This document shows, one piece after another, positions 3,842 to 24,727 of a stretch of DNA of 32,000 nt; position 1 is the first letter of the stretch, and every line of letters begins with the position of its first letter. Source of the stretch: an uncultured Actinomycetota bacterium (GTDB taxonomy: Bacteria > Actinomycetota > Actinomycetes > Mycobacteriales > Mycobacteriaceae); the NCBI GenBank assembly GCA_963814505.1, contig CAWFDM010000020.1, forward strand, positions 228,993 through 260,992, written 5' to 3'. Below the pieces are notes generated by a model. That model was not told the origin of the DNA, did not search any database, and worked only from the letters and a program-made list of their open reading frames with translations. The translations under genes were made by a program, and so were the position numbers.

Positions 3842-4029
3842 CGGAACTCTCCGCCTTAAACGGCGGCGCCCGTGGGGCCGGGACCGGCGCTGGCGCCGCG
3901 GGCGGTAACGGCGGCAATGCCGTGCTGATTGGTGACGGCGGCGACGGCGGTAACGGCGGGACTGGCACGCCGCCGGGCAAGGCCGGCACCGGGGGCACTG
4001 GCGAGCTGCTGGTCGCGCGAACGGAATAA
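3838..4029 (+). pseudogene. PGRS-only fragment (orphan Gly-rich PE_PGRS C-terminal remnant, no PE domain)
   Basis: ATG 3838 overlaps the add stop (ATGA). The 63 codons read '[55 protein letters not shown]', which is PGRS-type GGA/GGN repeat. No PE N-terminus lies upstream. Confidence 0.4.
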
Positions 4030-4192
4030 GCGGGCGCCGTTGCCGACCGCGCGGCGTCTAGTACCCTCTGCCGTCGCAGATATCCGACCCCTCCCCCGCG
4101 CGATCTACGCGCTCGGACGGACGTTTTTCGGCTCACGACCTCGCATAGTTCGAAATGAACGATCCCGCGATCCGCTAACCGGGAGGCAGCAG

Positions 4193-5773
4193 ATGTCGTT
4201 CGTGATTTCGGTACCGGAAATGCTGCAGGACGCTGCGACGGACCTGGCGAACCTCGGCTCGACGATCGGCGCGGCAAACGCGGCCGCGGTGACCCCGACG
4301 ACGGGCGTGCTGGCGGCCGCCGCCGATGAGGTGTCAACGGCGCTCGCGGCGATGTTCAGCGCACACGCTCAGCTGTATCAGGCGGTCAGCGCCCAGGCTG
4401 CGGCGTTTCACAGTGAGTTTGTACAGGCGATGACCGCGAGCGCGGGCGCATACGCCAGCGCCGAGGCCGCCAACGCCGCGGCGGTAGCGAATCCGTTGCA
4501 AACAATCGAGGAACAGCTGCTCCAGGCCGTGAATGCGCCCGCCGAATTTTTGTTGGGGCGTCCGCTGATCGGCAACGGCGCCAACGGGGCACCGGGTACC
4601 GGGCAAAATGGCACGCCCGGCGGAATCTTGTGGGGCAACGGCGGGGCCGGCGGGTCTGGCACCCCTCAAGGCGGACCGGGCGGAAACGGCGGCGCCGGTG
4701 GACTATTCGGTAACGGTGGCGCCGGTGGCGACGGGGCCATACCGCAGGGCACCATCGGCAACGGCGGTCACGGCGGCAACGGTGGCGCGGGCGGCCTGTT
4801 CGGCACCGGCGGAGTCGGCGGCGGCGGCGGGGTCGGCAACGTCGACGGCGGGGCCGGCGGGGCCGGAGGCGCCGGCGGGCTGCTCGCCAACGGCGGCGCC
4901 GGCGGCAATGGCGGGCTCGGCTTCAAGGGCGACGGAGGCGCCGCCGGGGCCGGAGGCGCCGCCGGGCTGTTCGGCACCGGTGGCGCCGGCGGCAACGGTG
5001 GACAGGGCAGCACCACCGGCGGGATCGGCGGGGCCGGCGGCGCCGCCGGACTGTTCGGCAATGGCGGCGCCGGCGGCATCGGCGGCGTCGGGGGCGGCAA
5101 CGGCGACGGAGGCGCCGGCGGGGCGGGCGGCAACGCCGGCTTCCTGGCCGGTGCCGCGGGTGACGGGGGCGCCGGCGGCTTTGCCGGCTTCCAGGGCGGG
5201 GCAGGCGGGGCAGGCGGCGACGCCGCACTGATCGGCAACGGCGGGCACGGCGGCACTGGCGGGCAAGCCTCACCCGGCAACGGGGGCGCTGGAGGAGCAG
5301 GCGGATCCGCCAAGCTATTCGGCCTCGGCGGTGATGGAGGCGTCGGCGGGTTCGGCCTCACCAACGCGGGCGCCGGCGGGACCGGAGGCGGCGGGTCCAT
5401 TTTCGGCAACGGTGGTAACGGCGGCGTCGGCGGCTTCGGCGGCATGATGGGCGGGCACGGCGGAACCGGCGGCAACGCCGGCGTCCTGTTCGGCTCCGGC
5501 GGCGCCGGCGGAACCGGCGGTATGAGCCAGGTCTCCGGGGGTTTCGGCGGTAACGGCGGCACCGGCGCGCTGATCGGCAACGGCGGCGACGCCGGCGCGG
5601 GGGGGTCGGCCCCCGCCGGCGGTCGCGGCGGTCACGGCGGCGACGCCCGGCTGATAGGCAACGGGGGCAACGGCGGCAACGGCGGGATTGGCTTCCCGGG
5701 AACCCTCGGTCCCGGCACCGGCGGCGCCGGCGGGTTGGTGTTCGGTCTGAACGGGATCGACGGATCCTTGTAG
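4193..5773 (+). CDS. PE_PGRS family protein
   Basis: ATG 4193 is preceded by GGGAGG (4181-4186). The PE domain '[32 protein letters not shown]...[19 protein letters not shown]' is followed by about 430 aa of GGAGG/GGNGG repeats. The track ORF start at 3929 is an upstream extension. Confidence 0.9.
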
Positions 5774-7357: not shown

Positions 7358-7951
7358 GTGGATTGCGGATTCGATGTCTCCACGTACGCCCGGACTGTCG
7401 AGGAGACCAACCGCGAACGCGTCAAACGCGGCGTGTCGTTGTCGGGACGAGACACCGCTGTCTTCGCTGATTACGGCGGTTACCGTGAGCCCGGGACGTT
7501 GGGAGACTTGTTGGACGCTCCGACTGGCAACACCCGGGCGACCCATGTTTGTGGTGCGGGACTTGCTGCCGAATCGCTCGACGACGCGTGGTATGACCGG
7601 TGGGCGCTGGAAGGCCTCGCCCACGCTCACGTGATCGCTGGTCTAGTGCTGTGCGGTGATATCGCGACTCTGGAAACCATTGCCGGAGTGCCTTTACCTG
7701 ACGTGGCCCTCGACGTAAGGCAGCCGTTTGGTGGCGTCGCCGCGGATGTGCTCTCGTTGGCGAGGGAAGCGCTGCATGCCTGGACTGAGATCGACTGCCC
7801 GGTACTGGATCCCGGCGACGTTGTAGACATGGATGCCCCGACCTCAGCGCTGCCCCGAATGCTGCTGGCCGCCCGGCGACGGTGGGATCAAACCGAACTG
7901 CTGGCCGCGGCGATCGCGGGCCTGGATGTAGAGCTGGTTGTCGATGGCTGA
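7358..7951 (+). CDS. Hypothetical acidic protein (cargo ORF 2 of IS607-like unit)
   Basis: 197-aa ORF with a coding-like codon pattern and lower GC3 than its neighbours. It overlaps the tnpA ATG (7944) by 8 nt. No family was recognised. Confidence 0.55.
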   Translation: MDCGFDVSTYARTVEETNRERVKRGVSLSGRDTAVFADYGGYREPGTLGDLLDAPTGNTRATHVCGAGLAAESLDDAWYDRWALEGLAHAHVIAGLVLCGDIATLETIAGVPLPDVALDVRQPFGGVAADVLSLAREALHAWTEIDCPVLDPGDVVDMDAPTSALPRMLLAARRRWDQTELLAAAIAGLDVELVVDG

Positions 7952-8573
7952 CCACGGCCCAGATGATTACGTGTCCGCGACCTCAGCCGCTCACCGGTTG
8001 GGGGTGTCGACACCTACGTTGCGCCGATACACCCAGGAAGGTCGGCTGCCGGATGCGCGCAGTGCGGGCGGGAGGCGGATCTTGCGGATCGGCGACTTGG
8101 ATGCTATCGCACCTAAACCATCCGCTGGCAAGGCAGTTGGGTATGCACGGGTGTCGTCACGGAGGCAACAAGCTGAAGGTGACCTTGATCGTCAGGTGGC
8201 CCGGCTAAAGGACCGTGACGGTGAGCTAGTCGTGTTCACCGACGTTGCTTCCGGCCTGTGGGACCGCCGCGTGGGGCTGCGGAAAGCGTTGGGTGAGTGC
8301 ATGAAACCGGGTGTGGATCGGCTGTTGGTGGAGCATCCGGACAGGTTGGCCCGGTTTGGTGTCGGGGTGATCGAACATCTGCTGGCGGGCTATGGGGTGA
8401 AGGTCATCTATACCGGCCAGCCGGAGGATGAGTCGGCGGAATCGGAGTTGGTGCGCGACATGCTGGCTATCGTGACCAGCTTTTCCGGGCGGCTGTATGG
8501 GCAGCGGTCGGCGAAGACGAAACGGTTGCGTGCGGCGGTGTCGGCCGAAACCGAATGCGGTGATGCCGCATGA
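7944..8573 (+). CDS. tnpA: IS607-family serine recombinase/transposase TnpA (MerR-like HTH + resolvase catalytic domain)
   Basis: The N-terminal HTH is 'SAAHRLGVSTPTLRRYTQEGRL'. The catalytic-serine block is 'VGYARVSSRRQ', followed by 'LLVEHPDRLARFG'. The stop overlaps the next ATG (ATGA at 8570-8573). Confidence 0.85.
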   Translation: MADHGPDDYVSATSAAHRLGVSTPTLRRYTQEGRLPDARSAGGRRILRIGDLDAIAPKPSAGKAVGYARVSSRRQQAEGDLDRQVARLKDRDGELVVFTDVASGLWDRRVGLRKALGECMKPGVDRLLVEHPDRLARFGVGVIEHLLAGYGVKVIYTGQPEDESAESELVRDMLAIVTSFSGRLYGQRSAKTKRLRAAVSAETECGDAA

Positions 8574-10271
8574 ACAACCAGGAATTGCGTGAGTGGCGTG
8601 GGGTGAAGCCGGTGGCCGCACCGTGCGGGGTAGCGATCAGTGCGCGGTTGCGTACCACCGCGGCCGATGAACCGGTGCTGGACGCGGTGGCCGCACATTT
8701 CGGACGGCTGCGCCGTGCCGACCTCACAGCGGTATGCCGTCTCGAACCAATTAGCTGCTGATCTGAGTCCTGATGAACGTCGACAGGTGCGCCGGGCTCG
8801 GCTTAACGCCCGTAAGAAGGCGTTGACCGCACAATCCTCGGCGCGGTGGGCCAATGCGATCATCACCGGCAACGATGACCAGTACCGGTTGTCCCGTGAC
8901 GCCCAGTACCGCCACATCGTAGGGTTGCGGGCGGCGATCACCACTATCGCGAAACGCCTGGCAGCCCCCACCACCGACACGCTCACAGCCAGTGAGCGCA
9001 AGGCCCGCCGAAAAGCCAAAGTAGCCCAAGGCTATGCGACTCAGCGCGAACGTTTCGCCAAGCAACAACGTCTACAGCAACTGCGTAGTGAGCTCGCCCG
9101 CGTGGAGGCTGATCGATCCGCACACCGGGTCCATGTGGTCGAGGGCGGGAAACGGCTCGCCCACACCCGCCACCACCTCGACGCCGCTGGTCTGACCACC
9201 GATGAGTGGCGTGAGAAGTGGGGGGCGTCGCGCTACCGCATCACCGCGAACGGTTCCCCCGACGAACCGTTCGGCAACCTCACGATCACCGTCACCCCGT
9301 CTGGCGAGGTGAGTCTGCGCCTGCCGAAACCGTTGGAACACCTGGCCAATGCCACCCGTGGCCGCTACGTGCTGTCGTGTCCAGCGGTGTTCACACATCG
9401 CGGGCACGAGTGGGTGCAACGGATCAGCGGCGGAAATTCGGTGTCCTACACCATTACCCACAAACCAGGGCGTTCCGGGCGATATCTCATCGCGGCGTGG
9501 GCGATCCCCGCGGTGCCATATTGGGTGGGCCGCGGCGACACAGCGGCTGGAGACGATGTCTATTCCACGGGCCCAGTGGTGGGAGTGGATCTCAACGACG
9601 GGCACCTGGCGGTGCGCCGGCTGGACGGTCATGGCAACCCCACTGGTCGTGCTGTGCGCATCGATATCGACCTCACTGGCAGCGCGTCACGCCGCGACGC
9701 TCAGGTGCGCCACGCCATCGCCCAGCTGATCGGTTACGCGCAGCAGTTGGGTATCGCTGCGATCGCGGTGGAAGACCTCGACTTCGCCGACGCCCGCACC
9801 GTCGGCCGTGAAACGATGGGCCGCGGCGCGCGTGGGAAACGGTTCCGCCGCACCGTGTCCGGCATGCCCACCGCCGTGTTCCGCAATCGACTAGCTGGCA
9901 TGTGCCACCGCGCGGGTATTGCCGTGTTCGCGGTCAATCCCGCCTACACCAGCACCTGGGGTGCGCAGCATTGGCAGCACCCCTATGAAAACGTCACCCG
10001 ACACCAGGCAGCAGCCACGGTGATCGGGCGTCGCGCCCAAGGCTTTAAGGCCCGGCGACGGAAAGGTGTGACACGCACGCGACCAGAGGATCGCGCCGTG
10101 AGAGCTACCAACCAGACCGGACCCGACAGCCCAACGGTGAACACCAGTAGCCGCCACCGGCCAGGGACACGGGGAACTAAATCCTGCGCACCCAACCGGG
10201 CAAGAATGCGACTACCGGGCCGGGCAACCGTTACCCCGGCAATGGCCAACAACGGCCAACTACGTTTGTAA
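8570..10271 (+). pseudogene. tnpB: TnpB-related IS607 accessory protein, interrupted by a frameshift near 8700-8760
   Basis: ATG 8570 is ATGA-coupled to tnpA and reads 'GVAISARLRTTAADEPVLDAVAAHFGRLRRADL' before stopping at 8761. The rest of the protein ('LSPDERRQVRRARLNARKKALT...GVDLNDGHLAV...IAVEDLDF...NPAYTSTWG..TRHQAAATVIGRRA') lies in another frame (track ORF 8640..10271). The total span of 1702 nt is not a multiple of 3. Confidence 0.75.
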
Positions 10272-11741: not shown

Positions 11742-12221
11742 ATGCATAAATCGCGGTTGATAGGCGGTGTGCGCACGGCCCTTGTCGTAGTCGGCGCAGT
11801 GTTCGGGGTTACGCTGCTGACCGCTGGTGAGGCAACTGCCGACGACGCGTTCCAGTTGAAGAGCAGATTAGGCAATTTTTGTTTGGACGCCCCGGACGGG
11901 AACCTCTACACGCCGACGGTGATCAACCCTTGCGATGGGTCGCAATCCCAGCGCTGGCATTCCGCCGCAGGCTGGCAGATCGAAAACGTGGCCTTCCCCG
12001 ACGCGTGTCTGGGAAACGCGCCGTTTAGCCAATTGGTGTCCGTCGAGCCCTGTTATTTGCGCAGGCAGCTTTGGAGCATCCAGCCCGACGGCCAGGTCAG
12101 GAGTATTTATGGTAATCCCTGCCTCAGCGTTGACGGCAGTGTGGCGAATCCTGGGACTCAGGTGAGCATTGCCCTTTGCAGCGCCGATAACCCCGCTGAA
12201 GAATGGGATAGCGTTCCGTGA
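11742..12221 (+). CDS. Secreted ricin-type beta-trefoil lectin (Rv1419/sMTL-13-like)
   Basis: ATG 11742. The signal peptide is 'MHKSRLIGGVRTALVVVGAVFGVTLLTAGEATA'. 'QLKSRLGNFCLDAP' and QxW-type motifs (QRW, QLW, EEW) with paired cysteines are present. It closely parallels the Rv1419 sequence as I recall it. Confidence 0.85.
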   Translation: MHKSRLIGGVRTALVVVGAVFGVTLLTAGEATADDAFQLKSRLGNFCLDAPDGNLYTPTVINPCDGSQSQRWHSAAGWQIENVAFPDACLGNAPFSQLVSVEPCYLRRQLWSIQPDGQVRSIYGNPCLSVDGSVANPGTQVSIALCSADNPAEEWDSVP

Positions 12222-12306
12222 CCGCGCGGCGCAATCCGATCCCCTACTTGATCGTCGGACGAATCCGGAAACGATCAGGGGGAATCGAAATTGCGGTGAT
12301 GGCGCC

Positions 12307-14127
12307 GTGACCGAACAACCCGATGATCCGTCGCCACCGCCGAACTCTGGCGACGAGCGCCCGGGGAGCGTGAGCCGGCGGCACCTGCTCGGCGGCGCTG
12401 GCCTATTCGGTATCGGTGCAGCCGCGGGCGCCTTGGCCGCCACAGCGGCACACGGGCCCCGCGGCGGGCACCCGACCGACGACCGCCCCGCCACCCCGCG
12501 TGTTCCGGGCACAACTCGGCAACGCAGCGGCCCGTTGAACGTCATTCTCGTAATACGCGACCAAACGCGGTTCGACTTGCCAGTCGCCGCTGGTTACACG
12601 ACGCCGGCGCTCGATCGATTGGCGCGGCAAGGGACCACGTTCCGTAACCATTACGTCGCATCGGCGATGTGCACGCCGTCCCGCGCCGCTTTCTTCAGTG
12701 GGCATCCACCGCAAGTCAACGGAGTCTTTGATCAGATGGAGACTGGGTGGGTCCCCAACTTGCGACCCGACCAGCCCAATATGGGTTCGATGATGAAGAA
12801 GCTTGGCTTCCAGACCGCATTTTTCGGCAAATGGGAAATGGATCGCGAAATTATTCCCCCCAAGCCGACCGTCAATTATAGCGACGCGCTACAACCCTAC
12901 GGTTTCGATATCTATCAGCCTGATGGCGACAAGGTCGGCGCTCCCAATCAGGGCTACGACACCGATGTCTACACCGGCAGCGAGGGCGTTCGCTGGCTGC
13001 GCAGCAATGTGCCCAAGCTGCGTGAATCCGGCCAGCCGTTCTTCATGATCGTCAGCTACCTCAACCCGCACGACATCATGTACGCGGACGCCAATGTGCC
13101 GGGAACACCCCAAGCGCAAAAAGCTGTGTCGAACGACGCGATCGTCGCGCCGCCGAACAATTCGCTCTACAGCAAGCGCTGGAACACCGCTCCCTCACCG
13201 ACGCTGCAGGAATCCTTATCGGCTCCCGGAATGCCGGCGGCGCTGTCCGAATACCACGTCGGGTGGGAGCGAGTGCTTGGCGAAATTCCCACGAATCGCC
13301 CGGATATGTGGGAGCGATTTAATGACTATTACCTCAACCTTATTCAGGATACGGATCTGAGCCTGCGGCAACTGGAAGATGGCCTCGACGAGCTGGGGCT
13401 CTGGGAAGACACGGTCGTGATCTTCACAGCTGACCACGGCGAGATGGCCGGCGATCACGGGGGCATCCGGGGCAAGGGTCCGATGGCCTACGAAGGCAAC
13501 TCGCATGTTCCGCTGGTTGTTGTCCACCCCAATTATCCCGGTGGCCAATCAACCGAGGCCGTCACCAGCCACCTGGATCTGATGCCATCGCTACCCGGCC
13601 TCGCGGGCGTGTCCCAGGACAAGCGGCGCGAGGCTGTGCAGGGTTTGCCGGGTCACGACATTTCCAGCGTCCTGGCAACAGCAAAGACCGCCGGAGTGCA
13701 AGCCATACGCCCAGGTGCCCTGTTCAACTACGTTGGACCCCTTACCATTGATTCAGGCTACTGCGTGGCCGGCATGACAGAATTGCTCCAAAACAAACCG
13801 GCGCCGCCTTTGACCGACCTTCAAACAAAACTCGGGAAACGTGGATTCATGAGCTTCGTTTTCGACGGTCAGTACAAATTCGCGCGTTACTACGCGCCCG
13901 CTAATTTCAACACTCCCATAACTCTTGAACAAATCCTGCACGACAATGACATCCAGCTCTTTGATCTAAAAAGCGACCCGCTCGAGAAAAACAATCTGGC
14001 CGTTGATCCGGAAAAAAACAAGGATCTCATACTGCGCATGAACGCGTTACTCAACGAGCTTATGAGCAAAGAAGTCGGTAAGAACGACGGCAGCTTCCTG
14101 CCTGAAGCGATTCGCACCCGCCCTTGA
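12307..14127 (+). CDS. Tat-signal formylglycine-type sulfatase (arylsulfatase family)
   Basis: The twin-arginine signal is 'SRRHLLGGAGLFGIGAAAGALAATAA'. The sulfatase motif is 'CTPSRAAFFSG', and 'TADHGEMAGDHG' is also present. GTG 12307 was chosen as the start. The track start at 12169 would overlap the lectin gene by 53 bp. Confidence 0.85.
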   Translation: MTEQPDDPSPPPNSGDERPGSVSRRHLLGGAGLFGIGAAAGALAATAAHGPRGGHPTDDRPATPRVPGTTRQRSGPLNVILVIRDQTRFDLPVAAGYTTPALDRLARQGTTFRNHYVASAMCTPSRAAFFSGHPPQVNGVFDQMETGWVPNLRPDQPNMGSMMKKLGFQTAFFGKWEMDREIIPPKPTVNYSDALQPYGFDIYQPDGDKVGAPNQGYDTDVYTGSEGVRWLRSNVPKLRESGQPFFMIVSYLNPHDIMYADANVPGTPQAQKAVSNDAIVAPPNNSLYSKRWNTAPSPTLQESLSAPGMPAALSEYHVGWERVLGEIPTNRPDMWERFNDYYLNLIQDTDLSLRQLEDGLDELGLWEDTVVIFTADHGEMAGDHGGIRGKGPMAYEGNSHVPLVVVHPNYPGGQSTEAVTSHLDLMPSLPGLAGVSQDKRREAVQGLPGHDISSVLATAKTAGVQAIRPGALFNYVGPLTIDSGYCVAGMTELLQNKPAPPLTDLQTKLGKRGFMSFVFDGQYKFARYYAPANFNTPITLEQILHDNDIQLFDLKSDPLEKNNLAVDPEKNKDLILRMNALLNELMSKEVGKNDGSFLPEAIRTRP

Positions 14128-14304: not shown

Positions 14305-14889
14305 TCAAGGAATGAGCGAACCCAACAGCTGAGCCAACAGCTGAGGGAGGACGCTTATCGAGATCCCAATTTCAACTAATGGAACGAATACGAAGAAAAA
14401 TGCAAAAAAAATGGCTACACCTATCAACGGAAGCAGCGGAGCCAACAAGCTTGTTAACCAATTTGCTAACATATTCTGAAAACCTGTCAACAAAGTGCTT
14501 AGCTGGCCCACGGCGGCGTTGAACAAGTTGACCAACTGGTCCCAGACGGCGCCGATACCGCTGCCAATCGAGCCGGCACTCGCAGCCAAGGGCTGCAACA
14601 GCGAGGCGTTGGCGGCCTCAGCGTGGGCAAACGAGCCCGCACTGGCAGTCAAGTGCTGCACAAACTGGTCCTGAAACGCCGCCGCGCGCCCGGCCAGCGC
14701 CTGATACTCCTGGGCGTGCGCCGAGAACAGGTGGGCGATACTGGCCGACACCTCATCGGCGGCCGCGGGCGGCACCGCGACGGTCCGGGCGGCCGCCACC
14801 GCGTGGGCGGCGCTGAGGTTCGAGCCGATGGTTGCCAAATCCGTTGCCGTCGAAGTCATTATCTCCGGCGCCGCGATCAGATACGACAT
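14305..14889 (-). CDS. PE family protein with C-terminal hydrophobic (TM-like) AT-rich tail
   Basis: The PE domain is 'MSYLIAAPEIMTSTATDLATIGSNLSAAHAVAAA...DEVSASIAHLFSAHAQEYQ'. The tail 'LLPLIGVAIFFAFFFVFVPLVEIGISISVLP' is encoded by atypically AT-rich codons at about 14355-14480. Confidence 0.85.
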   Translation of the reverse strand: MSYLIAAPEIMTSTATDLATIGSNLSAAHAVAAARTVAVPPAAADEVSASIAHLFSAHAQEYQALAGRAAAFQDQFVQHLTASAGSFAHAEAANASLLQPLAASAGSIGSGIGAVWDQLVNLFNAAVGQLSTLLTGFQNMLANWLTSLLAPLLPLIGVAIFFAFFFVFVPLVEIGISISVLPQLLAQLLGSLIP

Positions 14890-15398: not shown

Positions 15399-15686
15399 TC
15401 AGGCGATGCGTTCGATCGTGGCGAGTTTCGAGCCGATGTGCTCACGGGCGGTTTCGGCGTCGTAGTGAGTCTGCATGTTAATGAAGAACATGTCGCTCAA
15501 CCCTAGTGCGCGCGAGAGCCGCAGTGCGGTGTCGGCGCTGATGCCGCGCTTGCCGTGCACGATTTCGTTGATGCGACGAGGCGGTACGTCGATCGTCTTG
15601 GCGATCCGGTACTGCGAGATGCCGAGCGGGTCGAGGAATTCGGTCTTGAGGATCTCGCCGGGGTGGGTAGGTGCGAAGTCTGCCAT
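15399..15686 (-). CDS. higA: HigA-family HTH antitoxin
   Basis: ATG 15686. The 95-aa product reads 'MADFAPTHPGEILKTEFLDPLGISQYRIAKTIDVPPRRINEIVHGKRGISADTALRLSRALG', which is the HigA/XRE signature. GAAAGAG lies upstream. Confidence 0.85.
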   Translation of the reverse strand: MADFAPTHPGEILKTEFLDPLGISQYRIAKTIDVPPRRINEIVHGKRGISADTALRLSRALGLSDMFFINMQTHYDAETAREHIGSKLATIERIA

Positions 15687-15700
15687 GGGATTTCTCTTTC

Positions 15701-15981
15701 CTAGTGATTGTCGACGATTTCGACGTTGCCGGCGCCGTGCGCAGTCCAGGTAAAGCAGATGCGCCACTGGTCGTTGACGCGGCCGCCGTATTGGCCTGCG
15801 CGGCTCCCGGTCAGCTTCTCTAGTCGGTTGCCCGTGGGCACCCGTAGGTCGTTGATGCTCGCGGCGGCGTTGATGAGAACGAGCTTGTTGTATGCGAGCC
15901 TGCTGAGTTCCGGGCTGAGGTTCTTGATGTAGCGGCGCTGCCAGATCGCCTCGGTGTCTTGTCCCGGAACGAGCGGATCAC
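15701..15981 (-). pseudogene. higB: HigB (RelE-fold) toxin, inactivated by a 1-nt frameshift after codon ~8
   Basis: GTG 15981 reads 'VIRSFRDK' and then leaves the frame. The adjacent frame gives 'DTEAIWQRRYIKNLSPELSRLAYNKLVLINAAASINDLRVPTGNRLEKLTGSRAGQYGGRVNDQWRICFTWTAHGAGNVEIVDNH*', ending at 15701. The 281-nt span is not a multiple of 3. No in-frame start rescues the C-terminal part. Confidence 0.75.
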
Positions 15982-16298: not shown

Positions 16299-17957
16299 TC
16301 AGCCCTTTGTGGACACCGAGACGTAATCGACGAGCATCGGCTGCCCGGAAACCGTTGCGGCGGTTGGGCCACCGCCGAACGCGGCCGGGAAACCTCCGCC
16401 CATCGCCACATCCAAGATGATGAAGAAGCCGTGGTGGGTGGCGTTGTCCCAGGCGGCCGCGGGGACCTGGTTTTCGTTGACGGTGAAATAGTTGTTGCCG
16501 TCCAGGTAGTAGCGCAACTGCTCGACGCTCGTACTGCGGTCCAGTTCGACAGCGTAGGTGTGGAAACTCGTTCCGGCGCCCGCCACCGGGCGTTCGCCGG
16601 AGCCGATTCCGGTGGTCTCGTTGAACGGCCCGCCGGGGCTAGTGCCGCCGTGCACAGTGCCGAACACCGAACCGCGGCCGTTGATGTCCTCCATAATGTC
16701 CAGCTCGCCGATGCTTGGCCAGTTGGAGGCACCGACAGGCCGCGCCGCGTCACCGAGCGCCCAAAACGCCGGCCAGTAGCCACGCCCGTTGGTGGTGTCG
16801 ACGTTGGGCTGCTCAATCGACGCCTCGATGCGCAGCACCCCGCCGGGCGGCGCCTGGAAGTCTGTGCGCTGCGTCTCGATCCGGCCCGACGTCCAGTTGC
16901 CGGCGGCGTCTCTGATCGGCTTGATCGCAAGGTGGCCGTTGCCGTCGAGGTAGACGTTGCTGGTGCTGTTGGTCATCGACTCGATTTCGCCGGTGCCCCA
17001 GTTGCCCGCTCCGCCGGGATAGCCGTGGCCCAGATCGTATAGCCAGTTCGAGCCGTTGACCGGGGAGCCGGCGGGGCCCGTGAAGTCGTCACGCCAAATC
17101 GTGGTGAAGCCGGTATCACCAGTGGCCCCGGCAGCGCCGTTGGCGCCGTTGTTCCCGTTGACGCCCGCGTGACCGGCGCTCCCAAACAATCCGGCCGCGC
17201 CGCCCGCGCCTGCGACGCCCCCGGTGCCGCCCGTACCGCCGGCACCAACCACGCCTAAGCCGTTGGCTGGGCCCCCGACCCCACCAGTACCCCCGACCCC
17301 GCCGACACCGCCGGTCCCACCATTGCCGAACAACAGCCCGCCGTGACCGCCGACCCCACCCGCCCCGCCAGCGCCGCCGGTACCACCCATCTGACCCGCG
17401 GCGCCGGCCGCCCCGGTAACCCCAGTTCCCCCGACCCCACCAGTTCCGCCATTACCGAACAATCCCGCCGGCCCGCCGGCACCGCCGGTCTGTCCGGGCA
17501 ACCCAGATCCCCCATCACCACCGTTACCCCACAAAATCCCGCCCGGCCCCCCGGCTTGGCCGGTCCCCGGGACCCCGTTGGTGCCATTACCGATCAGCGG
17601 ACGCCCCAACAACGCGTTGCTGGGTGCATTGATCACGCCCACGACGTCCTGCTCGAGGGTCTGCAACGACGAGGCACCGGCGGCCTCCGCGGCCGCATAA
17701 GCGCCCGACCCCGCGTTGAGGGCCTGCACAAACTGCCGGTGAAACGTCGCGGCCTGCGCACTGATCACCTGAAAGGCCTGCCCATACCCGCCCCACAACG
17801 CCGCAATCGCCGCCGACACCTCATCCCCACCGGCCGCCAACAGCCGCGTCGTCGACACCCGCGCCGCCGCATTAGCCGCATCAATCACCGACCCCAACCC
17901 GACCAAATCCCCCGCCGCCGCCCCCACCGTCTCCGGGCCCACCACCACATACGCCAT
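16299..17957 (-). CDS. PE_PGRS protein with C-terminal GH16 beta-glucanase (laminarinase-like) domain
   Basis: 552 aa. The PE domain '[32 protein letters not shown]' is followed by a PGRS linker. The C-terminal domain carries 'WRDDFTG', 'GRIETQ', 'WPAFWALG' and the catalytic ExDxxE in '[11 protein letters not shown]'. Confidence 0.9.
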
Positions 17958-18153
17958 CAGACAGCTCCCCTGAACTCAGGACCACTCACCACCACCGCAA
18001 CACCGGCGGCGCCATCGCTGGCAAGACACAGCACACTTGCTCGCAGCCCCTCGGCCTTTTGCGCGCGCTGCACCCGTGTTACGAACGCGTCGGCGAAACC
18101 GGCTACGACGGCCATCATCCGAGCACCGTACCATACCTTTTGGTATGGTACGC
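17126..18153 (-). repeat. 1,028-bp direct duplication, copy A (PE-PGRS module + 196 bp upstream)
   Basis: Identical to 19987..21014 at an offset of 2861 bp, except for one substitution (17708 a vs 20569 c, Ser/Ala). Confidence 0.9.
18127..18152. promoter_or_regulatory. Perfect palindrome CGTACCATACC-TTTT-GGTATGGTACG (operator or terminator), copy A
   Basis: 11-bp arms with a 4-nt spacer. It lies 8 nt downstream of the TetR stop and 170 bp upstream of the PE_PGRS-GH16 start. An identical copy is at 20988-21013. Confidence 0.5.
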
Positions 18154-18159
18154 CGGTGT

Positions 18160-18726
18160 TTACGGCCGTAGCATGAAGTCGAGAAATCGTTCGCGCTGCA
18201 GCGGGGGCTGTTTCTTTGGCGTCGGACCGGATAGGTGCAGCAGTCCGATGCCGGCGGCGAACGTTGTAGCAGCCCTTAGTTCGGCCTCTTCGGCGTCAAA
18301 ACCGTAGTCGCAGAACGCCTGTCGCACGACCTTGAGCAGCCGGCGGTCGGCCGAGCGCACCGCGGCCGCGACGGTCTCATCGGAGTGGGCCCATTCGCGC
18401 ATCGCCCGCTCCAGCGTCCAGAGTCGCGGCCTGACTAGCGAAGCCATCATCTGTGACAGCCGCTCCCGCGGCGGAATGTCGCGCATCCGCTCGATATCGC
18501 GACGGTCTTCGTCACGCAAGTGCGCCCAGGATTCGACCAGCGCCCCGCGATAGGCCCCCATATCGGCGAAATGCCAGTAGAAGCTGCCCTTCGTCACGCC
18601 GAGGCATGCGCAGAGCCGATCGAGTTTGAGCGCATGTAGACCCCCCTCGGCCAGGATCGTGTAGCCGGCCTGCAGCCAATCGTCGACCGTCAGTCGAGCA
18701 TTTCCGGACGTGCGGCGGCTCGCCAT
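18160..18726 (-). CDS. TetR-family transcriptional regulator
   Basis: ATG 18726 was chosen as the start. The HTH is 'LHALKLDRLCACLGVTKGSFYWHFADMGAY'. The 188-aa length is typical. The track start at 18867 would overlap the upstream PE_PGRS gene. Confidence 0.85.
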   Translation of the reverse strand: MASRRTSGNARLTVDDWLQAGYTILAEGGLHALKLDRLCACLGVTKGSFYWHFADMGAYRGALVESWAHLRDEDRRDIERMRDIPPRERLSQMMASLVRPRLWTLERAMREWAHSDETVAAAVRSADRRLLKVVRQAFCDYGFDAEEAELRAATTFAAGIGLLHLSGPTPKKQPPLQRERFLDFMLRP

Positions 18727-18859
18727 GGTCCGCAGCCTACGGATCGTGGTCGAGCGGGCCGCGGTGAGGTGTTCGTAGGCGACGCCATAGAACGGCGCGG
18801 CGGCCTGCACCACCAGTAATGGCGATGAAGCCGGGATCGCCGCCCGGCTTAAGGACGCA

Positions 18860-20818
18860 TCAGTCAAGGTTGAATGACAGCTGAGTCGGGGGCTGGGAGT
18901 TGCTGAGGATCAGCACCGAACTCTGGCTGTTCACGTCGTCATAGGGGAAGCCGTAGGCCAGGTTGTTGATGCTGTCCTCGTGGAAGAACTCTGCGTAGTT
19001 GTTCCACCGCCCCCCCGCCGGATAGTAGGCGGCGACGTTGGCCCATTGATCCGACTCGGTCGCCACACCTCGGTTGAACGCCGCGTCGAGTTCGGCGAGA
19101 AACGCCCCTTGTGCGCCCGTGCCGACGAATGGGCCATCGGCGGCGAAGGTTTGCGCCGTTGTGGGCATCGTCATCGTGTACACCGAGGTGCTGCCCCCGG
19201 TGGGGGTCACGCTGTACACGAACTGGTCGCTGGCGTTGACGTTGCCGTGCACCGTGTAGCCGGGGCCGTTGTAGTTGAACTGGTTGGTTTGATAGGTCGT
19301 CCAGAAGTCATTGATCGGTGAATCAAGCCAGGTGGCCAGGGCTCCGGGCTGGACGGTCCGGGGGGACAAAATCCGCACCGGGCTGCCGTTGGCATCGTTG
19401 ACCATCAGTGACTGGAACGCGGACGGCTCCGTGGCCTTGAACTGCTGGAACACTTGGTCCCGCGACAGAGCCAGGCCACTGGTGCCCGAAAAGCCACTGG
19501 AGTTCTGTGTCACCGTGACTGAGAACGGGAACCCGAACTGGTCCACCTGTGTCGTGTTGCCGCCGAAGGGGACTGCGCCGTTTTTGAAGGTCATCTCATA
19601 CCAGTCGTAGACCGTGCTGTAATTCGGATCGGCAGGATTCGCTGGGTTAGGACCCGCCCAGCCCTTGTTGTCGGGGCTGATGGCGATATAGAGCGGCTGC
19701 TTCTCCGACAGGAATATCCGGGCCCCCTCAAGTTCGGGCGGCATCTGGAAGTTGCCCGCCTGGGCGAGAGTGAACGACATATCGGCGTAGTTCACGCCGT
19801 TCTTCGTGAGGTGGTCTGCGGCGTTGGCGGCGTCGTGGTCGATCGCGTGGGCCACGCCGTTCTGGTCGATCCAAGACCATTGGCCCGGTGTCGTCTGGCC
19901 GATTACAGTCACATAGACCTGGTTGTCGCTCAAACCGGTGTTGTTGGTGAAGACGAAGGTTCCGGTGGAGCCGGTGTGACCGGTGCCCCCGGCAGCGCCG
20001 TTGGCGCCGTTGTTCCCGTTGACGCCCGCGTGACCGGCGCTCCCAAACAATCCGGCCGCGCCGCCCGCGCCTGCGACGCCCCCGGTGCCGCCCGTACCGC
20101 CGGCACCAACCACGCCTAAGCCGTTGGCTGGGCCCCCGACCCCACCAGTACCCCCGACCCCGCCGACACCGCCGGTCCCACCATTGCCGAACAACAGCCC
20201 GCCGTGACCGCCGACCCCACCCGCCCCGCCAGCGCCGCCGGTACCACCCATCTGACCCGCGGCGCCGGCCGCCCCGGTAACCCCAGTTCCCCCGACCCCA
20301 CCAGTTCCGCCATTACCGAACAATCCCGCCGGCCCGCCGGCACCGCCGGTCTGTCCGGGCAACCCAGATCCCCCATCACCACCGTTACCCCACAAAATCC
20401 CGCCCGGCCCCCCGGCTTGGCCGGTCCCCGGGACCCCGTTGGTGCCATTACCGATCAGCGGACGCCCCAACAACGCGTTGCTGGGTGCATTGATCACGCC
20501 CACGACGTCCTGCTCGAGGGTCTGCAACGACGAGGCACCGGCGGCCTCCGCGGCCGCATAAGCGCCCGCCCCCGCGTTGAGGGCCTGCACAAACTGCCGG
20601 TGAAACGTCGCGGCCTGCGCACTGATCACCTGAAAGGCCTGCCCATACCCGCCCCACAACGCCGCAATCGCCGCCGACACCTCATCCCCACCGGCCGCCA
20701 ACAGCCGCGTCGTCGACACCCGCGCCGCCGCATTAGCCGCATCAATCACCGACCCCAACCCGACCAAATCCCCCGCCGCCGCCCCCACCGTCTCCGGGCC
20801 CACCACCACATACGCCAT
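18860..20818 (-). CDS. PE_PGRS protein with C-terminal GH64-like beta-1,3-glucanase domain
   Basis: 652 aa. The N-terminal ~285 aa are the same as in ORF 16299..17957. The C-terminal blocks '[17 protein letters not shown]', 'GARIFLS', '[23 protein letters not shown]', 'VRILSPR', 'INDFWTTY' and 'AYGFPYDDV' match the GH64 laminaripentaose-producing glucanase pattern as I recall it. Confidence 0.85.
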
Positions 20819-21014
20819 CAGACAGCTCCCCTGAACTCAGGACCACTCACCACCACCGCAACACCGGCGGCGCCATCGCTGGCAAGACACAGCACACTTG
20901 CTCGCAGCCCCTCGGCCTTTTGCGCGCGCTGCACCCGTGTTACGAACGCGTCGGCGAAACCGGCTACGACGGCCATCATCCGAGCACCGTACCATACCTT
21001 TTGGTATGGTACGC
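19987..21014 (-). repeat. 1,028-bp direct duplication, copy B
   Basis: See copy A (17126..18153). It includes the palindrome at 20988-21013. Confidence 0.9.
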
Positions 21015-21043: not shown

Positions 21044-22279
21044 CTATGTAGGTCCGGGCCTGCGGATAGCATCGACAAGTTCACCGGCACGCACTGCCAC
21101 GTTCGACAGCAAGGTGGACGCCAGGCCGTGCGTGTGCTCGACCGACCCGTTGAGGTAGATATCTCCCGGTGCCCCCCCTTTAGGGATCAGACGGTAATCC
21201 CGCGTGACGGCGGGACGTCCATCCAGGTCGAATTCGTAACAGCTGGCCAGGTCTCCCAGGAAACTTCGGATGTCCAGCGGCGCATAACCCGTTGCGTAAA
21301 TTACCGCATCGCAGTCCAGCGTCTCCTGCGAGCGGTTGGCCAGGTGGGAGATGATCAGCCGCACGCCGTCGGGAGATTCTTTTGTGTCACTGACTTCGGA
21401 AGCCTTGTGCGTGAACAGCCGTCGATCGCCGGAGACCCGCTCGGAATACTCGCGCGAGTAGAGTTCGTCGATCAGTTGGGGATCGACGGCTGAGTAATTG
21501 GTCGAGCGATGGTAATCGAGCAGTCGTTGCCGCAGCGGTTCGTCAGCGCCGTAGAAGTCGTCGACGGCCGACGGGTCGAAAATCCGGTTGGCGTAAGGAC
21601 TGTCGTCGGCCACGCTGTAACCATATCGAGTGAAGACCGCATGCACTTGGGCCTGCGGGTAAGTCTCATAGAGGTAGGCGACCACCTCGGCTGCGCTTTG
21701 ACCGGCACCGACGACAGCGAATCGCCTTGGCAAAGAAGAGTTTAGCGTGGCGAGACGATCGAGCAATGTGTGGCTATGCCACTGCCGGGCGCTTTCGATA
21801 ACGCCCGCCGGCAGCACGGGGTGCAGACCGGTACCCAAAACCAAGGCCCCTGCCTGTATCTCACATTCGGGTTCGGCCCGAACCGCAAAACCCGACTCGC
21901 CAGGAGTAACCCCGACAACACGGTGTCCGTAGCGCACGTCCGCATTCACCCGGGCGGCTGCCCACTCGAGATAGTCATGGAATTCCAGCCGGCCGGGAAA
22001 GAGAGTGTGCCGGCCGATGAACTCGACCAGCCGATCACGCTCGCTCAGATAATTCAGAAACGTAAACTCGCTCTTGACATTCCGCAATGTCACAAGGTCT
22101 TTGAGGAAGGGCACCTGCATGCGTGCGCCCGGAAGCAGCATGCCCCGGTGCCACCCGAACCGACGTTGAGTCTCCACGAACACGGCCTGCATACCGCGCT
22201 CAGCGAGCGCGATCGCCAACGCGAGATTCGACGGCCCAAACCCGACACCGAGCAGGTCGGTCCTGTCAGGAGTGGACAT
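21044..22279 (-). CDS. Lysine/ornithine N-monooxygenase (IucD/PvdA/SidA family flavoprotein)
   Basis: ATG 22279. The FAD motif is 'LLGVGFGPSNLALAIAL' and the NADPH motif is 'FAVVGAGQSAAE'. 'FTRYGYS' and 'DAVIYATGY' are also present. The start overlaps the upstream acyltransferase stop by 14 nt. Confidence 0.85.
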   Translation of the reverse strand: MSTPDRTDLLGVGFGPSNLALAIALAERGMQAVFVETQRRFGWHRGMLLPGARMQVPFLKDLVTLRNVKSEFTFLNYLSERDRLVEFIGRHTLFPGRLEFHDYLEWAAARVNADVRYGHRVVGVTPGESGFAVRAEPECEIQAGALVLGTGLHPVLPAGVIESARQWHSHTLLDRLATLNSSLPRRFAVVGAGQSAAEVVAYLYETYPQAQVHAVFTRYGYSVADDSPYANRIFDPSAVDDFYGADEPLRQRLLDYHRSTNYSAVDPQLIDELYSREYSERVSGDRRLFTHKASEVSDTKESPDGVRLIISHLANRSQETLDCDAVIYATGYAPLDIRSFLGDLASCYEFDLDGRPAVTRDYRLIPKGGAPGDIYLNGSVEHTHGLASTLLSNVAVRAGELVDAIRRPGPT

Positions 22280-23072
22280 GAGAACGAACCAACCGTTCGA
22301 GATAGCGTTCACGCACCATCGCCCGGTTGATCAAGACGACGAAATCCGCCATGTCGAAATCCCGATCGTAGGAGGGCTCTCCGCAGATCAACCCGCCGAT
22401 CCGCAGACAGCCCTGCACCATCGGCGGAATACGTACCCGCCCAGGGTCCGGCAATTCGGAGAGAGCTAATCCATTGACCTGAACCGGGTTTCGAGGTACC
22501 ACCCGGTATTGCGGGGGCGCGGGATGGGCGCCGAACGCCGCGTCGCGAACGCCGCGCACCAACGCGCCCCGCGCCCCGCCGCCTTCCATCCGGACCGACA
22601 GGCACCCGATTCCCCATTCGTAGCCGGTGATTTCCTGGTAGCGCAGGATCCCTGCCCACAGCAGCCCCATCACCGCGCCATTGCGGTGTGCCGCATGCAC
22701 GCTTACCCGGCCAATTTCGACGAGTTTGGGGCGCAACTGGTTTAGGCCGCCGATGTCGAAGATGGTGTCGGCGAACAGCCCTCCGGCGGCTTTGGCGCCC
22801 TCGGGTGGCAGCAGTCGGTAGCAGCCCACGATTTGGCCAGTGGTCTTGTCTCTCGCCAGCACGTGATCGCTGTGCGGATCGAACTGGTCGACATCGATCA
22901 TTTCGCCGGTCAGTGGTCCACGAACAGCTTGGGGCAGTGCCGCTCCCATTTCTTCGGCAAACGTCTGATAGCGCAACCGCTGGGCGGCTTCGATGTCGGC
23001 GGGGTCGGTGGAAATCATGACGCTGTAGCGACCGGTATCGGTCGCCGGAATCAGGGTCGCGTCACCCACCAT
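22266..23072 (-). CDS. OlsB/hemolysin-like GNAT N-acyltransferase (Acetyltransf_5-type)
   Basis: 'AQRLRYQTFAEEMGA', 'DVDQFDPHSDHVLARD', 'VGCYRLLPP', 'VEIGRVSVHAAHRNG..LLWAGILRY', 'PPMVQGCLRIGG' and 'DFDMADFVVL' follow the lyso-ornithine-lipid synthase / N-acyl amino acid synthase pattern. An alternative start is ATG 23018. Confidence 0.8.
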   Translation of the reverse strand: MVGDATLIPATDTGRYSVMISTDPADIEAAQRLRYQTFAEEMGAALPQAVRGPLTGEMIDVDQFDPHSDHVLARDKTTGQIVGCYRLLPPEGAKAAGGLFADTIFDIGGLNQLRPKLVEIGRVSVHAAHRNGAVMGLLWAGILRYQEITGYEWGIGCLSVRMEGGGARGALVRGVRDAAFGAHPAPPQYRVVPRNPVQVNGLALSELPDPGRVRIPPMVQGCLRIGGLICGEPSYDRDFDMADFVVLINRAMVRERYLERLVRSHVHS

Positions 23073-23176
23073 GCCGGAAGACTACCCAAACCTGCCTTCC
23101 GCGATGCGGGATTCGAGCGCGGTCCCCCGGTCCTGGACGTCGCGGGAACGCTACCGCTCCGCGGTTACCGACCGGA

Positions 23177-24727
23177 TCACTCGTCGACCGGAGCAAACTT
23201 GCGTTGGCGCGCGCCGATCGCGATGAGTATGGCCGTGCCCACCGCGGCGACGGTCGCGGCGATTGCGGCGGCCACCAGCGCGGCCTGCATTCCATCGGCG
23301 CTCGCCTGCCGGGCTACCCGCGCAATAGCCGGTAGCGCCGGCCGGAAGCCGGCCGGCAGGAAATCGAGTACCCGCAGACCAGCGCCCGCCGACAATCTGT
23401 CGATGAGTTGGTTCACCGGGCCTTGATCGACACCATGGAGTTTGGCGAGCCCCCCTCGGGCGCCGTCGCCCGCGTGCCGGCTGAACAGGGCACCCAGGCC
23501 GGCAACCCCGGCCAAAATGCCGACCTGACGAACCGTACTCACCGCGCCGGTCGCCATTCCGGCATCCGCGACCGGAACGAATTCCAGTGCGATGTCAGAC
23601 GTCAACGCGAACAGGCCACCCAGACCCAGACCGGCCACGATCGAACCACCGATGAAATGCGTCCATTGGATGCTTTCGGTCACCCCGGTCATCAGCCATA
23701 GGCCCGCCGCGATCAGCACTACCCCACCGGATATCGACATCCAGGCCGGGAAGTAGCGTGCGGCGGTCATGGCCAGCGGGGCGCCCAGCACGCACGCGAT
23801 GGTCAGCGGAAGGGCTCGCAGGCCGGCCTGAAATGGGCTGTATCCCAGGGTGTTCATGAAGTAGAGCGCCAGGTAGTTGGTCGAGGCGATCAGTGTCCCG
23901 GCCGCCGCGAAGGCCGCGAGCGATACCCCTGCGAATCCCGGTCGACGCACGACCCGCAGGTCGAGCATTGGGGCGGCCACGCGCGATTCCCACCAAACAA
24001 AAAACATCAGGGCTAGGGCGCAGAACGCGCCGAGCGCCAGGATCAGCGTGCTGGCCCAACCGAGGTGATTGCCTTCGATCAACACATACACACCCGCGAA
24101 CAGCGCAGCCGAGAGCGCGGCCGTGCCGAGCAGGTCGAGTGGGCGGTCTTGCGCGGCGCGGGTTTCCGGAACGAACCACACCGCGATCGCCAGAGCCGCC
24201 ACCCCGATCGGCACATTGATCAAGAAGATCGATTCCCAGCCGAAAGCTACGACCAGTGCTCCACCGAGCAACGGGCCGACAGCGGCACCCGCCCCCATCA
24301 CGGCGCCGTAGATCGCGATGGCTATGCCTCTGCTTCGCTGTTCTGGAAACGCCGCAGCCACCATCGGCAGTGAGACGCCGAGCAACACCGCTCCACCGGC
24401 ACCCTGCAGCGCCCGGCACGAGTTCAGCATCTCGATGCTGCCGGACAGTGCGCAGCCGGCCGAAGCGAGTGTGAATACCGTCATTCCGACCAGGTACAGA
24501 CGCCGCCGCCCAAGTCGGTCCCCCAAGGTGGCCGTCGTGAGCAGCAGCCCCGCCATGGGCAGCGCGTAGGCGTCCACCACCCACTGCAGTCCACTGAGTT
24601 CGGCGTCCAGGGATGCCTGAATGTTGGCAAGAGCGGCCGAGACGATGGTCATGTCGAGCAGCAGCATGAAGACCGCGAGGCAGACCGCCACCATGGTCAG
24701 GCGAGCGGTGGCCCGGGGGGAAACCAC
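23177..24727 (-). CDS. MFS transporter, DHA2 (EmrB/QacA, 14-TMS) type
   Basis: 516 aa. 'LDMTIVSAALANIQASL..LQWVVDAYAL' and 'GDRLGRRRLYLVGMTVF' are present. Many hydrophobic segments run along the whole length. Confidence 0.9.
   Translation of the reverse strand: MVSPRATARLTMVAVCLAVFMLLLDMTIVSAALANIQASLDAELSGLQWVVDAYALPMAGLLLTTATLGDRLGRRRLYLVGMTVFTLASAGCALSGSIEMLNSCRALQGAGGAVLLGVSLPMVAAAFPEQRSRGIAIAIYGAVMGAGAAVGPLLGGALVVAFGWESIFLINVPIGVAALAIAVWFVPETRAAQDRPLDLLGTAALSAALFAGVYVLIEGNHLGWASTLILALGAFCALALMFFVWWESRVAAPMLDLRVVRRPGFAGVSLAAFAAAGTLIASTNYLALYFMNTLGYSPFQAGLRALPLTIACVLGAPLAMTAARYFPAWMSISGGVVLIAAGLWLMTGVTESIQWTHFIGGSIVAGLGLGGLFALTSDIALEFVPVADAGMATGAVSTVRQVGILAGVAGLGALFSRHAGDGARGGLAKLHGVDQGPVNQLIDRLSAGAGLRVLDFLPAGFRPALPAIARVARQASADGMQAALVAAAIAATVAAVGTAILIAIGARQRKFAPVDE

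Follow-up and report, generated by a model that had tools for sequence, protein, structure and literature searches.

A tandem pair of predicted beta-1,3-glucanases in an environmental Mycobacterium shares a PE-PGRS module and its upstream region

How do two enzymes with unrelated catalytic domains come to carry the same PE-PGRS N-terminus, and what might that N-terminus do for them? The question is raised by a 32,000-nucleotide (nt) stretch of contig CAWFDM010000020.1 (hereafter the window, meaning the whole stretch analysed), which comes from an uncultured environmental slow-growing Mycobacterium of the M. gordonae type and in which two neighbouring genes encode proteins that begin alike and end in domains of glycoside hydrolase family 16 (GH16) and family 64 (GH64), respectively. 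In pathogenic mycobacteria, PE and PE_PGRS proteins account for a large part of the genome and are poorly understood. Few of them, to our knowledge, have a demonstrated biochemical function, and as far as we know PE_PGRS proteins and type VII secretion have been studied almost only as host-interaction factors. We consider it probable that the two genes form a tandem pair of beta-1,3-glucanases in which a PE-PGRS module has replaced the signal peptide, a reading that includes proposals for their export, their synergy and their control by a TetR-family regulator.

A preliminary description of this DNA, made from its letters alone, had recognised both open reading frames (ORFs), and both are indeed there on the minus strand (552 and 652 amino acids), each beginning with the PE domain and glycine-rich PGRS linker that it had assigned to them. 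It had the two proteins sharing some 285 residues with one difference before parting abruptly. The single difference stands (Ser84 in the GH16 protein, Ala84 in the GH64 protein), as does the abruptness, but the shared part is shorter, residues 1–277, with divergence setting in at residue 278 and residues 278–285 only loosely alike (GxTGxTG). What the description overlooked is that the duplication takes in the 5' regions of the genes and that the pair is a conserved tandem undergoing gene conversion. A BLAST alignment of the two gene copies runs from -203 to +855, counted from the ATG, and covers 1059 bp with 99.2% identity (17103..18160 on the GH16 side). Within it, a four-way alignment defines a strict block of 1027 nt, from -196 to +831, whose sole mismatch, at nt +249, produces the S84A difference, the remaining mismatches of the BLAST alignment being confined to the two block edges. 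The block spans nearly the whole intergenic region 5' of each gene and ends at the junction of PGRS linker and catalytic domain (Table 1). A repeat of such length and identity cannot be due to chance. Nor is it an artefact of assembly, because the same arrangement is present on a metagenome contig of the European Nucleotide Archive (ERZ25039538 contig_37086, here L005), which is 99.9% identical to the window, and on a second contig from the same sample (L006), which represents a sister strain that is 99.1% identical and has the same layout; a chimera was considered as the source of the repeat and ruled out, as the arrangement recurs in independent assemblies that include the complete genome of M. 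camsae.

The C-terminal domain of the shorter protein is of the laminarinase type of GH16. Its sequence matches PDB entries 3dgt (E=7e-104), 7eo3 (E=2e-90) and more than 30 other GH16 laminarinase structures, along its full length it shares ~65% identity with 3DGT, an endo-1,3-beta-glucanase of Streptomyces sioyaensis, and a Foldseek search with the predicted model of the full-length protein returns 3dgt at E=3e-33 with a template modelling (TM) score of 0.88. The domain has the ExDxxE motif (ELDIME, residues 418–423), the WPAFW pair, W413 within WPSIGE, and both the NWGTGE and the SGRIET block, all of them invariant in 27 homologues. Comparisons of the window with other species give ratios of nonsynonymous to synonymous substitution rates (dN/dS) of 0.20–0.29 for this domain, which is under purifying selection. 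From these features we would predict the activity of a retaining endo-1,3-beta-glucanase of the Streptomyces type. The closest relatives outside the mycobacteria, with GH16 domains 70–80% identical to that of the window, come from Kutzneria, Dactylosporangium, Actinoplanes, Streptomyces and others; they are secreted and mostly have C-terminal CBM6 or ricin modules. In 3DGT and the related GH16_XgeA group (PF26113), which share the ExDxxE and subsite residues with the window protein, a signal peptide likewise stands at the N-terminus and a CBM6 or ricin module usually at the C-terminus, whereas the window protein has a PE-PGRS N-terminus; neither of the two window glucanases has a carbohydrate-binding module (CBM).

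One detail of the earlier account of this arm went astray. PF00722, the Pfam profile it named for GH16, matches neither the protein nor, even at E<=10, the isolated domain, and only a weak match to PF03935 is seen; the identical protein on L005 has a weak precomputed match to the newer PF26113. We considered the missing PF00722 match as an argument against GH16 and rejected it: the sequence and fold matches to PDB entries are overwhelming, and the miss reflects a limit of model sensitivity. PF00722 misses the whole actinomycete laminarinase group, and scans that use this profile only would overlook such fusions.

The longer protein ends in a GH64 domain that aligns with positions 5–363 of the 370 in PF16483 and matches PDB entries 9vp9 (E=8e-46), 5h4e (E=9e-44) and 3gd0, the structure of LPHase (E=5.5e-14). 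Foldseek with the predicted structure of the domain retrieves GH64 structures only; as this model is of moderate quality (pLDDT 66.6, and below 50 in the active-site loop 133–173), it was used for fold assignment alone and not for active-site geometry. The catalytic pair of LPHase is Glu154 and Asp170 according to a modelling paper of 2016 (PMC4758615). In the window protein, E408 aligns with the Glu of LPHase 'NWSEYT' and with the sole difference between 5H9X and 5H9Y (E to A), D426 aligns with the Asp of LPHase 'TQVDMF', and both residues, together with the adjacent sugar-binding block, are invariant in 18 homologues. The laminaripentaose-producing enzymes LPHase (S. matensis, 3GD0) and PbBgl64A (Paenibacillus, 5H9X) thus share with the window domain the PF16483 match, the catalytic Glu and Asp and the NTTQVD block; they differ from it in their N-termini, with a signal peptide or CBM where the window protein has PE-PGRS, and the window domain, compared with LPHase, has an insertion of two residues between its catalytic Glu and Asp. 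Relatives of the domain in Mycolicibacterium and Streptomyces are 45–65% identical. Its dN/dS against other species is 0.32–0.60, indicating purifying selection that is weaker than for GH16. The predicted activity is of the inverting, laminaripentaose-producing type. The motifs from which the preliminary description had argued (ELDIME, WPAFW, AYGFPYDDV and the GH64 block) were all found, both of its family assignments are borne out by profiles or solved structures, and the catalytic acids are in place in both domains (E418, D420 and E423 in GH16; E408 and D426 in GH64).

What, then, does the shared N-terminus contribute? PF00934 matches residues 4–93 of both proteins with E-values near 1e-31, and the YAAAE at the end of the second helix is a YxxxD/E type VII secretion motif; the same YAAAE is found in LipY and PecA (PMC6819658). 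The NCBIfam model for LipY matches the PE part of the window proteins at E=1.4e-26. Residues 111–277, common to both proteins, are 47% Gly with eight GGxGG motifs; PF21526 recognises this tract in the GH16 protein, and the whole-protein score of the GH64 protein falls under the cut-off despite its identical tract. In the predicted structure of the GH16 protein, PE forms a helical hairpin (residues 7–55 and 57–92) at low pLDDT and the PGRS tract, at pLDDT 70–90, is without regular secondary structure. The closest relatives outside the mycobacteria have ordinary signal peptides in place of PE-PGRS, and their mature domains, '...APAPPTGFTTVW' and 'GTGSFPITFQNNTG', begin at the same residues as the window catalytic domains; the PE-PGRS module therefore stands exactly at the position of the Sec/Tat signal. 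It is mainly because of this position, and further because of the LipY/PecA-type motif and the precedent of MMAR_0369, that we infer export by the PE route, which in slow growers is ESX-5. In that precedent, PecA frees the hydrolase domain at the C-terminus of the PE protein MMAR_0369 (PMC13578627). Both LipY, a PE-lipase, and MMAR_0369, a PE-alpha/beta hydrolase, are substrates of ESX-5 and have the plan seen here (a PE domain with YAAAE, a linker and a C-terminal hydrolase), and PecA cuts both in the linker or PE region so that the enzyme domain is freed. Their cargo is a lipase or esterase, however, whereas the window cargo is a glycoside hydrolase, the window linker is a full PGRS of ~165 residues, and export of the window proteins is predicted. 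By analogy with LipY, PecA and MMAR_0369, and given the signal-peptide position, it is plausible that both glucanases would leave the cell through ESX-5. In related species, N-termini of the same PE-PGRS kind also precede domains of GH18 chitinases (PF00704), type I phosphodiesterases (PF01663) and PecA-type proteases (PF20729).

The region between the glucanase genes holds a gene for a TetR-family regulator, whose longest ORF reaches 18867 and for which NCBIfam gives only sub-threshold matches to named TetR regulators. As just 46 nt separate the GH64 stop codon from its start, co-transcription of the GH64 and TetR genes is plausible. A perfect palindrome of 24 bp (10-4-10; 0 expected by chance) lies in the same position before each glucanase gene, and the identity block starts 2 nt upstream of it. 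Among the tandem loci described below, those of M. camsae, M. gordonae and a further metagenome contig (L007) have no TetR gene, which is confined to the window lineage, and the palindrome is not in these loci either. Scanning the metagenome collection for the exact 24-mer gave one further occurrence, on an unrelated contig (L088, 4383–4406), where it lies ~100 nt downstream of the gene for a TetR orthologue of 60% protein identity, with an acyl-CoA-dehydrogenase-like gene 10 nt downstream of it; the rest of that contig has no DNA similarity to the window. Because stem and loop are exactly conserved across this divergence, a protein-binding site is favoured, and the palindrome is probably the operator of the TetR protein.

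Put together, these elements suggest how the pair might work. The PE domain, through its YAAAE motif, would direct both proteins out by the ESX-5 type VII system, after which a PecA-type surface protease would cut in or near the PE domain or linker, so that the glucanase either stays on the surface or is released. The two enzymes could then act jointly on beta-1,3-glucan of foreign origin, for example that of fungal and oomycete walls or the laminarin of algae, with GH64 attacking insoluble (triple-helical) glucan and GH16 making internal cuts in the chains. In this lineage, the palindrome before each gene would be bound by the repressor that is encoded between them, and both genes would so be switched together.

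Table 1. Features of the glucanase pair, in window coordinates.
Feature	Position	Strand	Basis or remark
PE-PGRS-GH64 gene, 652 aa	18860..20818	-	ORF list; Pfam PE E=7.1e-31, Glyco_hydro_64 E=1.3e-67
PE-PGRS-GH16 gene, 552 aa	16299..17957	-	ORF list; Pfam PE E=5.5e-31, PGRS E=3.6e-10
Duplicated block, GH64-side copy (-196..+831)	19988..21014	-	pairwise BLAST and alignment
Duplicated block, GH16-side copy, upstream region and PE-PGRS module (-196..+831)	17127..18153	-	1 mismatch in 1027 nt
PE domain of GH64 protein, aa 4-93, YAAAE at aa 87-91	20540..20809	-	PF00934; YxxxE motif; LipY model
PE domain of GH16 protein, aa 4-93, YAAAE at aa 87-91, S84	17679..17948	-	PF00934; motif; model
Linker helix and PGRS tract, GH64 protein, aa ~111-277	19988..20488	-	equal to tract of GH16 protein
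Linker helix and PGRS tract, GH16 protein, aa ~111-277	17127..17627	-	PF21526; composition; model
GH64 catalytic domain, aa 288-641	18896..19957	-	PF16483; PDB 9vp9, 5h4e, 3gd0; Foldseek
Predicted catalytic E408, codon	19595-19597	-	aligns with E-to-A site of 5H9Y
Predicted catalytic D426, codon	19541-19543	-	aligns with LPHase TQVD
GH16 laminarinase-type catalytic domain, aa 282-550	16308..17114	-	PDB 3dgt, 7eo3; Foldseek; motif
ExDxxE, E418-L-D420-I-M-E423	16689-16706	-	W413 five residues ahead of E418
TetR-family regulator gene, 217 aa (call on L005), between glucanase genes	18160..18813	-	PF00440 E=2.9e-07
24-bp perfect palindrome GTACCATACC-AAAA-GGTATGGTAC, -194..-171 of GH16 gene	18128-18151	-	8 nt past TetR stop
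Identical second palindrome, -194..-171 of GH64 gene	20989-21012	-	sequence scan

A number of observations weigh against this reading, and they bear on its regulation, on export and on the activity of the enzymes. As to regulation, both window palindromes lie just past the stop codon of a same-strand upstream gene (8–31 nt past it), the L088 copy is likewise downstream of a TetR gene, and the palindrome folds into a stable hairpin (dG -23.7 kcal/mol, z -3.6) that is compatible with a terminator; a scan of the shared upstream region for sigma-70-like promoters, of a kind poorly suited to mycobacteria, found none. The palindrome might accordingly be a terminator hairpin, or a small mobile repeat travelling with the 3' end of the TetR gene, and not an operator, and we give this explanation a real though lesser chance. 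It would have to contend with the identity of all 24 nt, AAAA loop included, on L088, where the TetR protein is only 60% identical and no other DNA aligns: for a terminator the structure would suffice and the exact sequence would not be needed. Moreover, no U-tract follows the hairpin, the copy on the GH64 side does not follow a TetR gene, and the palindrome keeps company with the TetR gene among the tandem loci, being missing where the gene is missing.

As to export, no ESX-5 locus, PPE partner or PecA gene lies within the window. We found no experimental work on the secretion or activity of any PE-glucanase in the literature, where, the supplementary tables of the 2026 PecA paper aside, the M. 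marinum GH64 protein was not found among ESX-5 or PecA substrates either.

The nature of the substrate is a separate matter, as the target of such enzymes is not readable from sequence. The exported enzymes might remodel or disperse a polymer of the bacterium itself or of its community, such as beta-glucan of a biofilm or capsule, and not fungal or algal glucan; there is a GH6 cellulase-like gene in the same window (1803–2804, plus strand, PF01341 E=1.5e-60, with a hydrophobic N-terminus), a third glycoside hydrolase gene within 15 kb of the glucanase pair, and mycobacterial cellulases have been considered in relation to the cellulose of biofilms. We think this improbable. Beta-1,3-glucan is not known as a polymer of the mycobacterial envelope or matrix, the closest homologues are enzymes that soil actinomycetes secrete and that have CBM6 or ricin modules, and the PE-GH18 fusions of related species also point to foreign targets, since chitin, too, is no mycobacterial polymer that we know of. 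An external beta-1,3-glucan as the target of the pair is plausible.

It is also conceivable, if very improbable, that the proteins are catalytically dead or lectin-like surface proteins that serve as glucan binders, adhesins or immune modulators. The case for this comes in part from Rv0315 of M. tuberculosis, which has the GH16 fold and an intact ExDxxE and yet is inactive for want of substrate-binding residues (PMC4606783). For the GH64 arm it comes from dN/dS, which reaches 0.60 in the comparison with L007, and from the sister strain L006, in which a GAG to TAG nonsense change at codon 588 (about 7907–7909 on that contig) removes the last 65 GH64 residues, including the conserved YGFPYDD block. 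This codon may reflect loss of the GH64 arm in the sister strain or a sequencing error; taken together with the ratio of 0.60, it hints at weaker constraint on the GH64 arm. Members of the Rv0315 family (4WZF, 4PQ9) do share with the window domain the mycobacterial setting, the GH16 beta-jelly roll and the ExDxxE, but at only 23–25% identity, compared with ~65% to 3DGT, the window GH16 belongs to a different lineage. Rv0315, which has a signal peptide, is without the key subsite residues and without the Trp of WPSIGE, whereas the window domain keeps this Trp along with the NWGTGE and SGRIET blocks. The invariance of the GH64 catalytic Glu and Asp and of the sugar-binding block, and the purifying selection on both domains, likewise speak for active glucanases.

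There remains the question of how the two N-termini have stayed so alike. The order GH64 then GH16 recurs in the complete genome of M. camsae, on L007, in M. gordonae DSM 44160 and in the sister strain, while M. paragordonae has the two genes unlinked, with PE domains just 68% identical. Compared as DNA in four tandem loci, the two modules of one genome are 99.2% identical in the window and 98.4% identical in the sister strain, and the figure is 97.5% for M. camsae and 88.7% for L007; between the window and L007, modules are ~87–90% identical whichever copies are paired. From this pattern it follows that the shared module is older than the lineages and has been re-homogenised in them to differing degrees. 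At sites -153 and -76, both paralogues of each of the two sister strains share the base specific to that strain, and in a tree of PE domains the GH64- and GH16-linked modules interleave by lineage and not by cargo. Gene conversion keeps the PE-PGRS module and ~196 bp upstream of it nearly uniform within a genome, and, the enzyme domains that follow being unrelated, the block ends sharply at the domain junction. One duplication or fusion of very recent date in this strain would fit the one mismatch in 1027 nt and the sharp block ends on both sides, but is most improbable given a tandem with shared module also in M. camsae and on L007 (and its gene order also in M. gordonae), L007 copies that have diverged about as far as species, the strain-specific alleles present in both copies at two sites, and eight private differences, not in the window, in the GH16 copy of the sister strain.

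In M. tuberculosis, PE_PGRS genes such as PE_PGRS17 and PE_PGRS18 are already known to undergo gene conversion, and the mechanism is not new. There, non-reciprocal exchange homogenises the PE-PGRS region between paralogues in a similar way. The exchange in the window differs in that it stays within the export module and the 5' region of the two genes, and this sharp restriction to what two unrelated enzymes have in common is neat.

The preliminary description had implied that fusions of PE_PGRS to glucanases were novel, which they are not: Sultana et al. (2016; PMC4758615) described such proteins with GH64 from M. marinum and M. ulcerans and modelled them in silico, listing in addition PE domains joined to GH18 chitinase, GH12 endoglucanase and CBD domains, and both types of fusion are in RefSeq and UniRef. 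PE-GH64 proteins, named 'glycoside hydrolase family 64 protein' by NCBI, are found in M. marinum, M. ulcerans, M. spongiae, M. camsae, M. paragordonae, M. shinjukuense and M. intermedium. Those of M. marinum and M. ulcerans (WP_012394280.1 and relatives) have the same PE, Gly-rich linker and GH64 architecture as the window protein, with a GH64 domain 77–80% identical to it that was modelled on the LPHase structure 3GD9. They differ in a PE module that is only ~68% identical to that of the window and in the solitary position of the gene, which on the locus representing the M. marinum group (L004) has no GH16 partner within the flanking 8 kb; the published work on them is in silico. PE-GH16 proteins occur in M. 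paragordonae, M. gordonae, M. camsae and Mycobacterium sp. 23, annotated in RefSeq and UniRef as 'PE domain-containing protein' or 'GH16 domain-containing protein'. GH16 is not mentioned in PMC4758615, and we found no published description of PE-GH16 proteins in the searchable literature.

A scan of the genome collection with the GH16 domain added little, the informative ones among the 80 loci listed being M. gordonae and one metagenome-assembled genome (MAG), with the rest in other actinomycetes. A PE-GH16 gene on L051 (6001–6799), from a MAG of the MFD series, has its GH16 domain split over two frames by a frameshift or sequencing error, and no GH64 gene lies within 6 kb of it. A 318-residue protein (P0121, 90% identical) was considered as an ancestral Mycobacterium GH16 with a signal peptide and discarded, since its sequence starts within the PGRS tract and is a truncated gene call.

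The window pair adds to a class of PE-fused secreted hydrolases already predicted in databases and in one paper of 2016. New here are the conserved tandem, the concerted evolution of module and promoter region, and the candidate TetR regulon, and these are modest details; for the specialist the surprise should be moderate, as the class of fusion is catalogued and gene conversion among PE_PGRS genes is known. The pair may nevertheless be of use. Its cargo is readable, in that release of sugar could provide a simple readout for ESX-5 targeting, PGRS linker function and PecA processing, and it constitutes a natural swap experiment, with one module and one 5' region placed on two different cargoes. 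Should the enzymes prove to be exported and active, type VII secretion would also matter outside the host, where it would serve the use or attack of organisms with beta-glucan walls, and this would extend the picture of life in water and soil for mycobacteria of the M. marinum, M. ulcerans and M. gordonae type.

The PE-PGRS module appears, from the range of domains to which it is joined, to be a general adaptor for secreted enzymes. It is tempting to go further and speculate that PE-PGRS and ESX-5 form a general export adaptor for a set of enzymes with which environmental slow growers degrade fungal walls, comprising GH16 and GH64 here and the PE-GH18 chitinases of related species, and co-switched in this lineage by a ligand-sensing TetR protein acting on duplicated operators. 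We regard this wider proposal, in the set of enzymes it names as in its mode of control, as unlikely in its full form; were it correct, type VII secretion and PE_PGRS proteins would also serve attack or feeding on fungi, oomycetes and algae.

The remainder of the window contains several further genes. Directly downstream of the GH16 gene, and kept in the sister strain, is a gene for a stand-alone PE protein (14305–14889, minus strand, 194 aa) whose C-terminal half is strongly hydrophobic and resembles a membrane segment. Another PE_PGRS gene (3929–5773, plus strand), in the most GC-rich part of the window (0.72–0.75), has its PE domain at residues 92–182 of the longest ORF, and its true start is probably ~270 nt further in. 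The adenosine/adenine-deaminase gene at 2822–3841 (plus strand) is without a close relative in named mycobacteria, with a best match of 93% in a metagenome and then ~62% in Nocardia and others, and may have been acquired. At 7938–8573 (plus strand), a MerR-type helix-turn-helix (HTH) and a serine-resolvase domain are encoded together, followed at 8640–10271 (plus strand) by a 543-residue ORF with no Pfam match, a layout resembling an IS607-type element. Between this element and the GH16 gene are a sulfatase gene (12169–14127, plus strand) and a gene for a regulator of the Xre/HTH_3 type (15399–15767, minus strand). Directly upstream of the GH64 gene (21044–24727, minus strand), a Lys/Orn N-monooxygenase gene, a GNAT acyltransferase gene and an MFS transporter gene stand in a row; they look like a small cluster of the hydroxamate-siderophore type, which is present in the sister strain and not in the other tandem loci.

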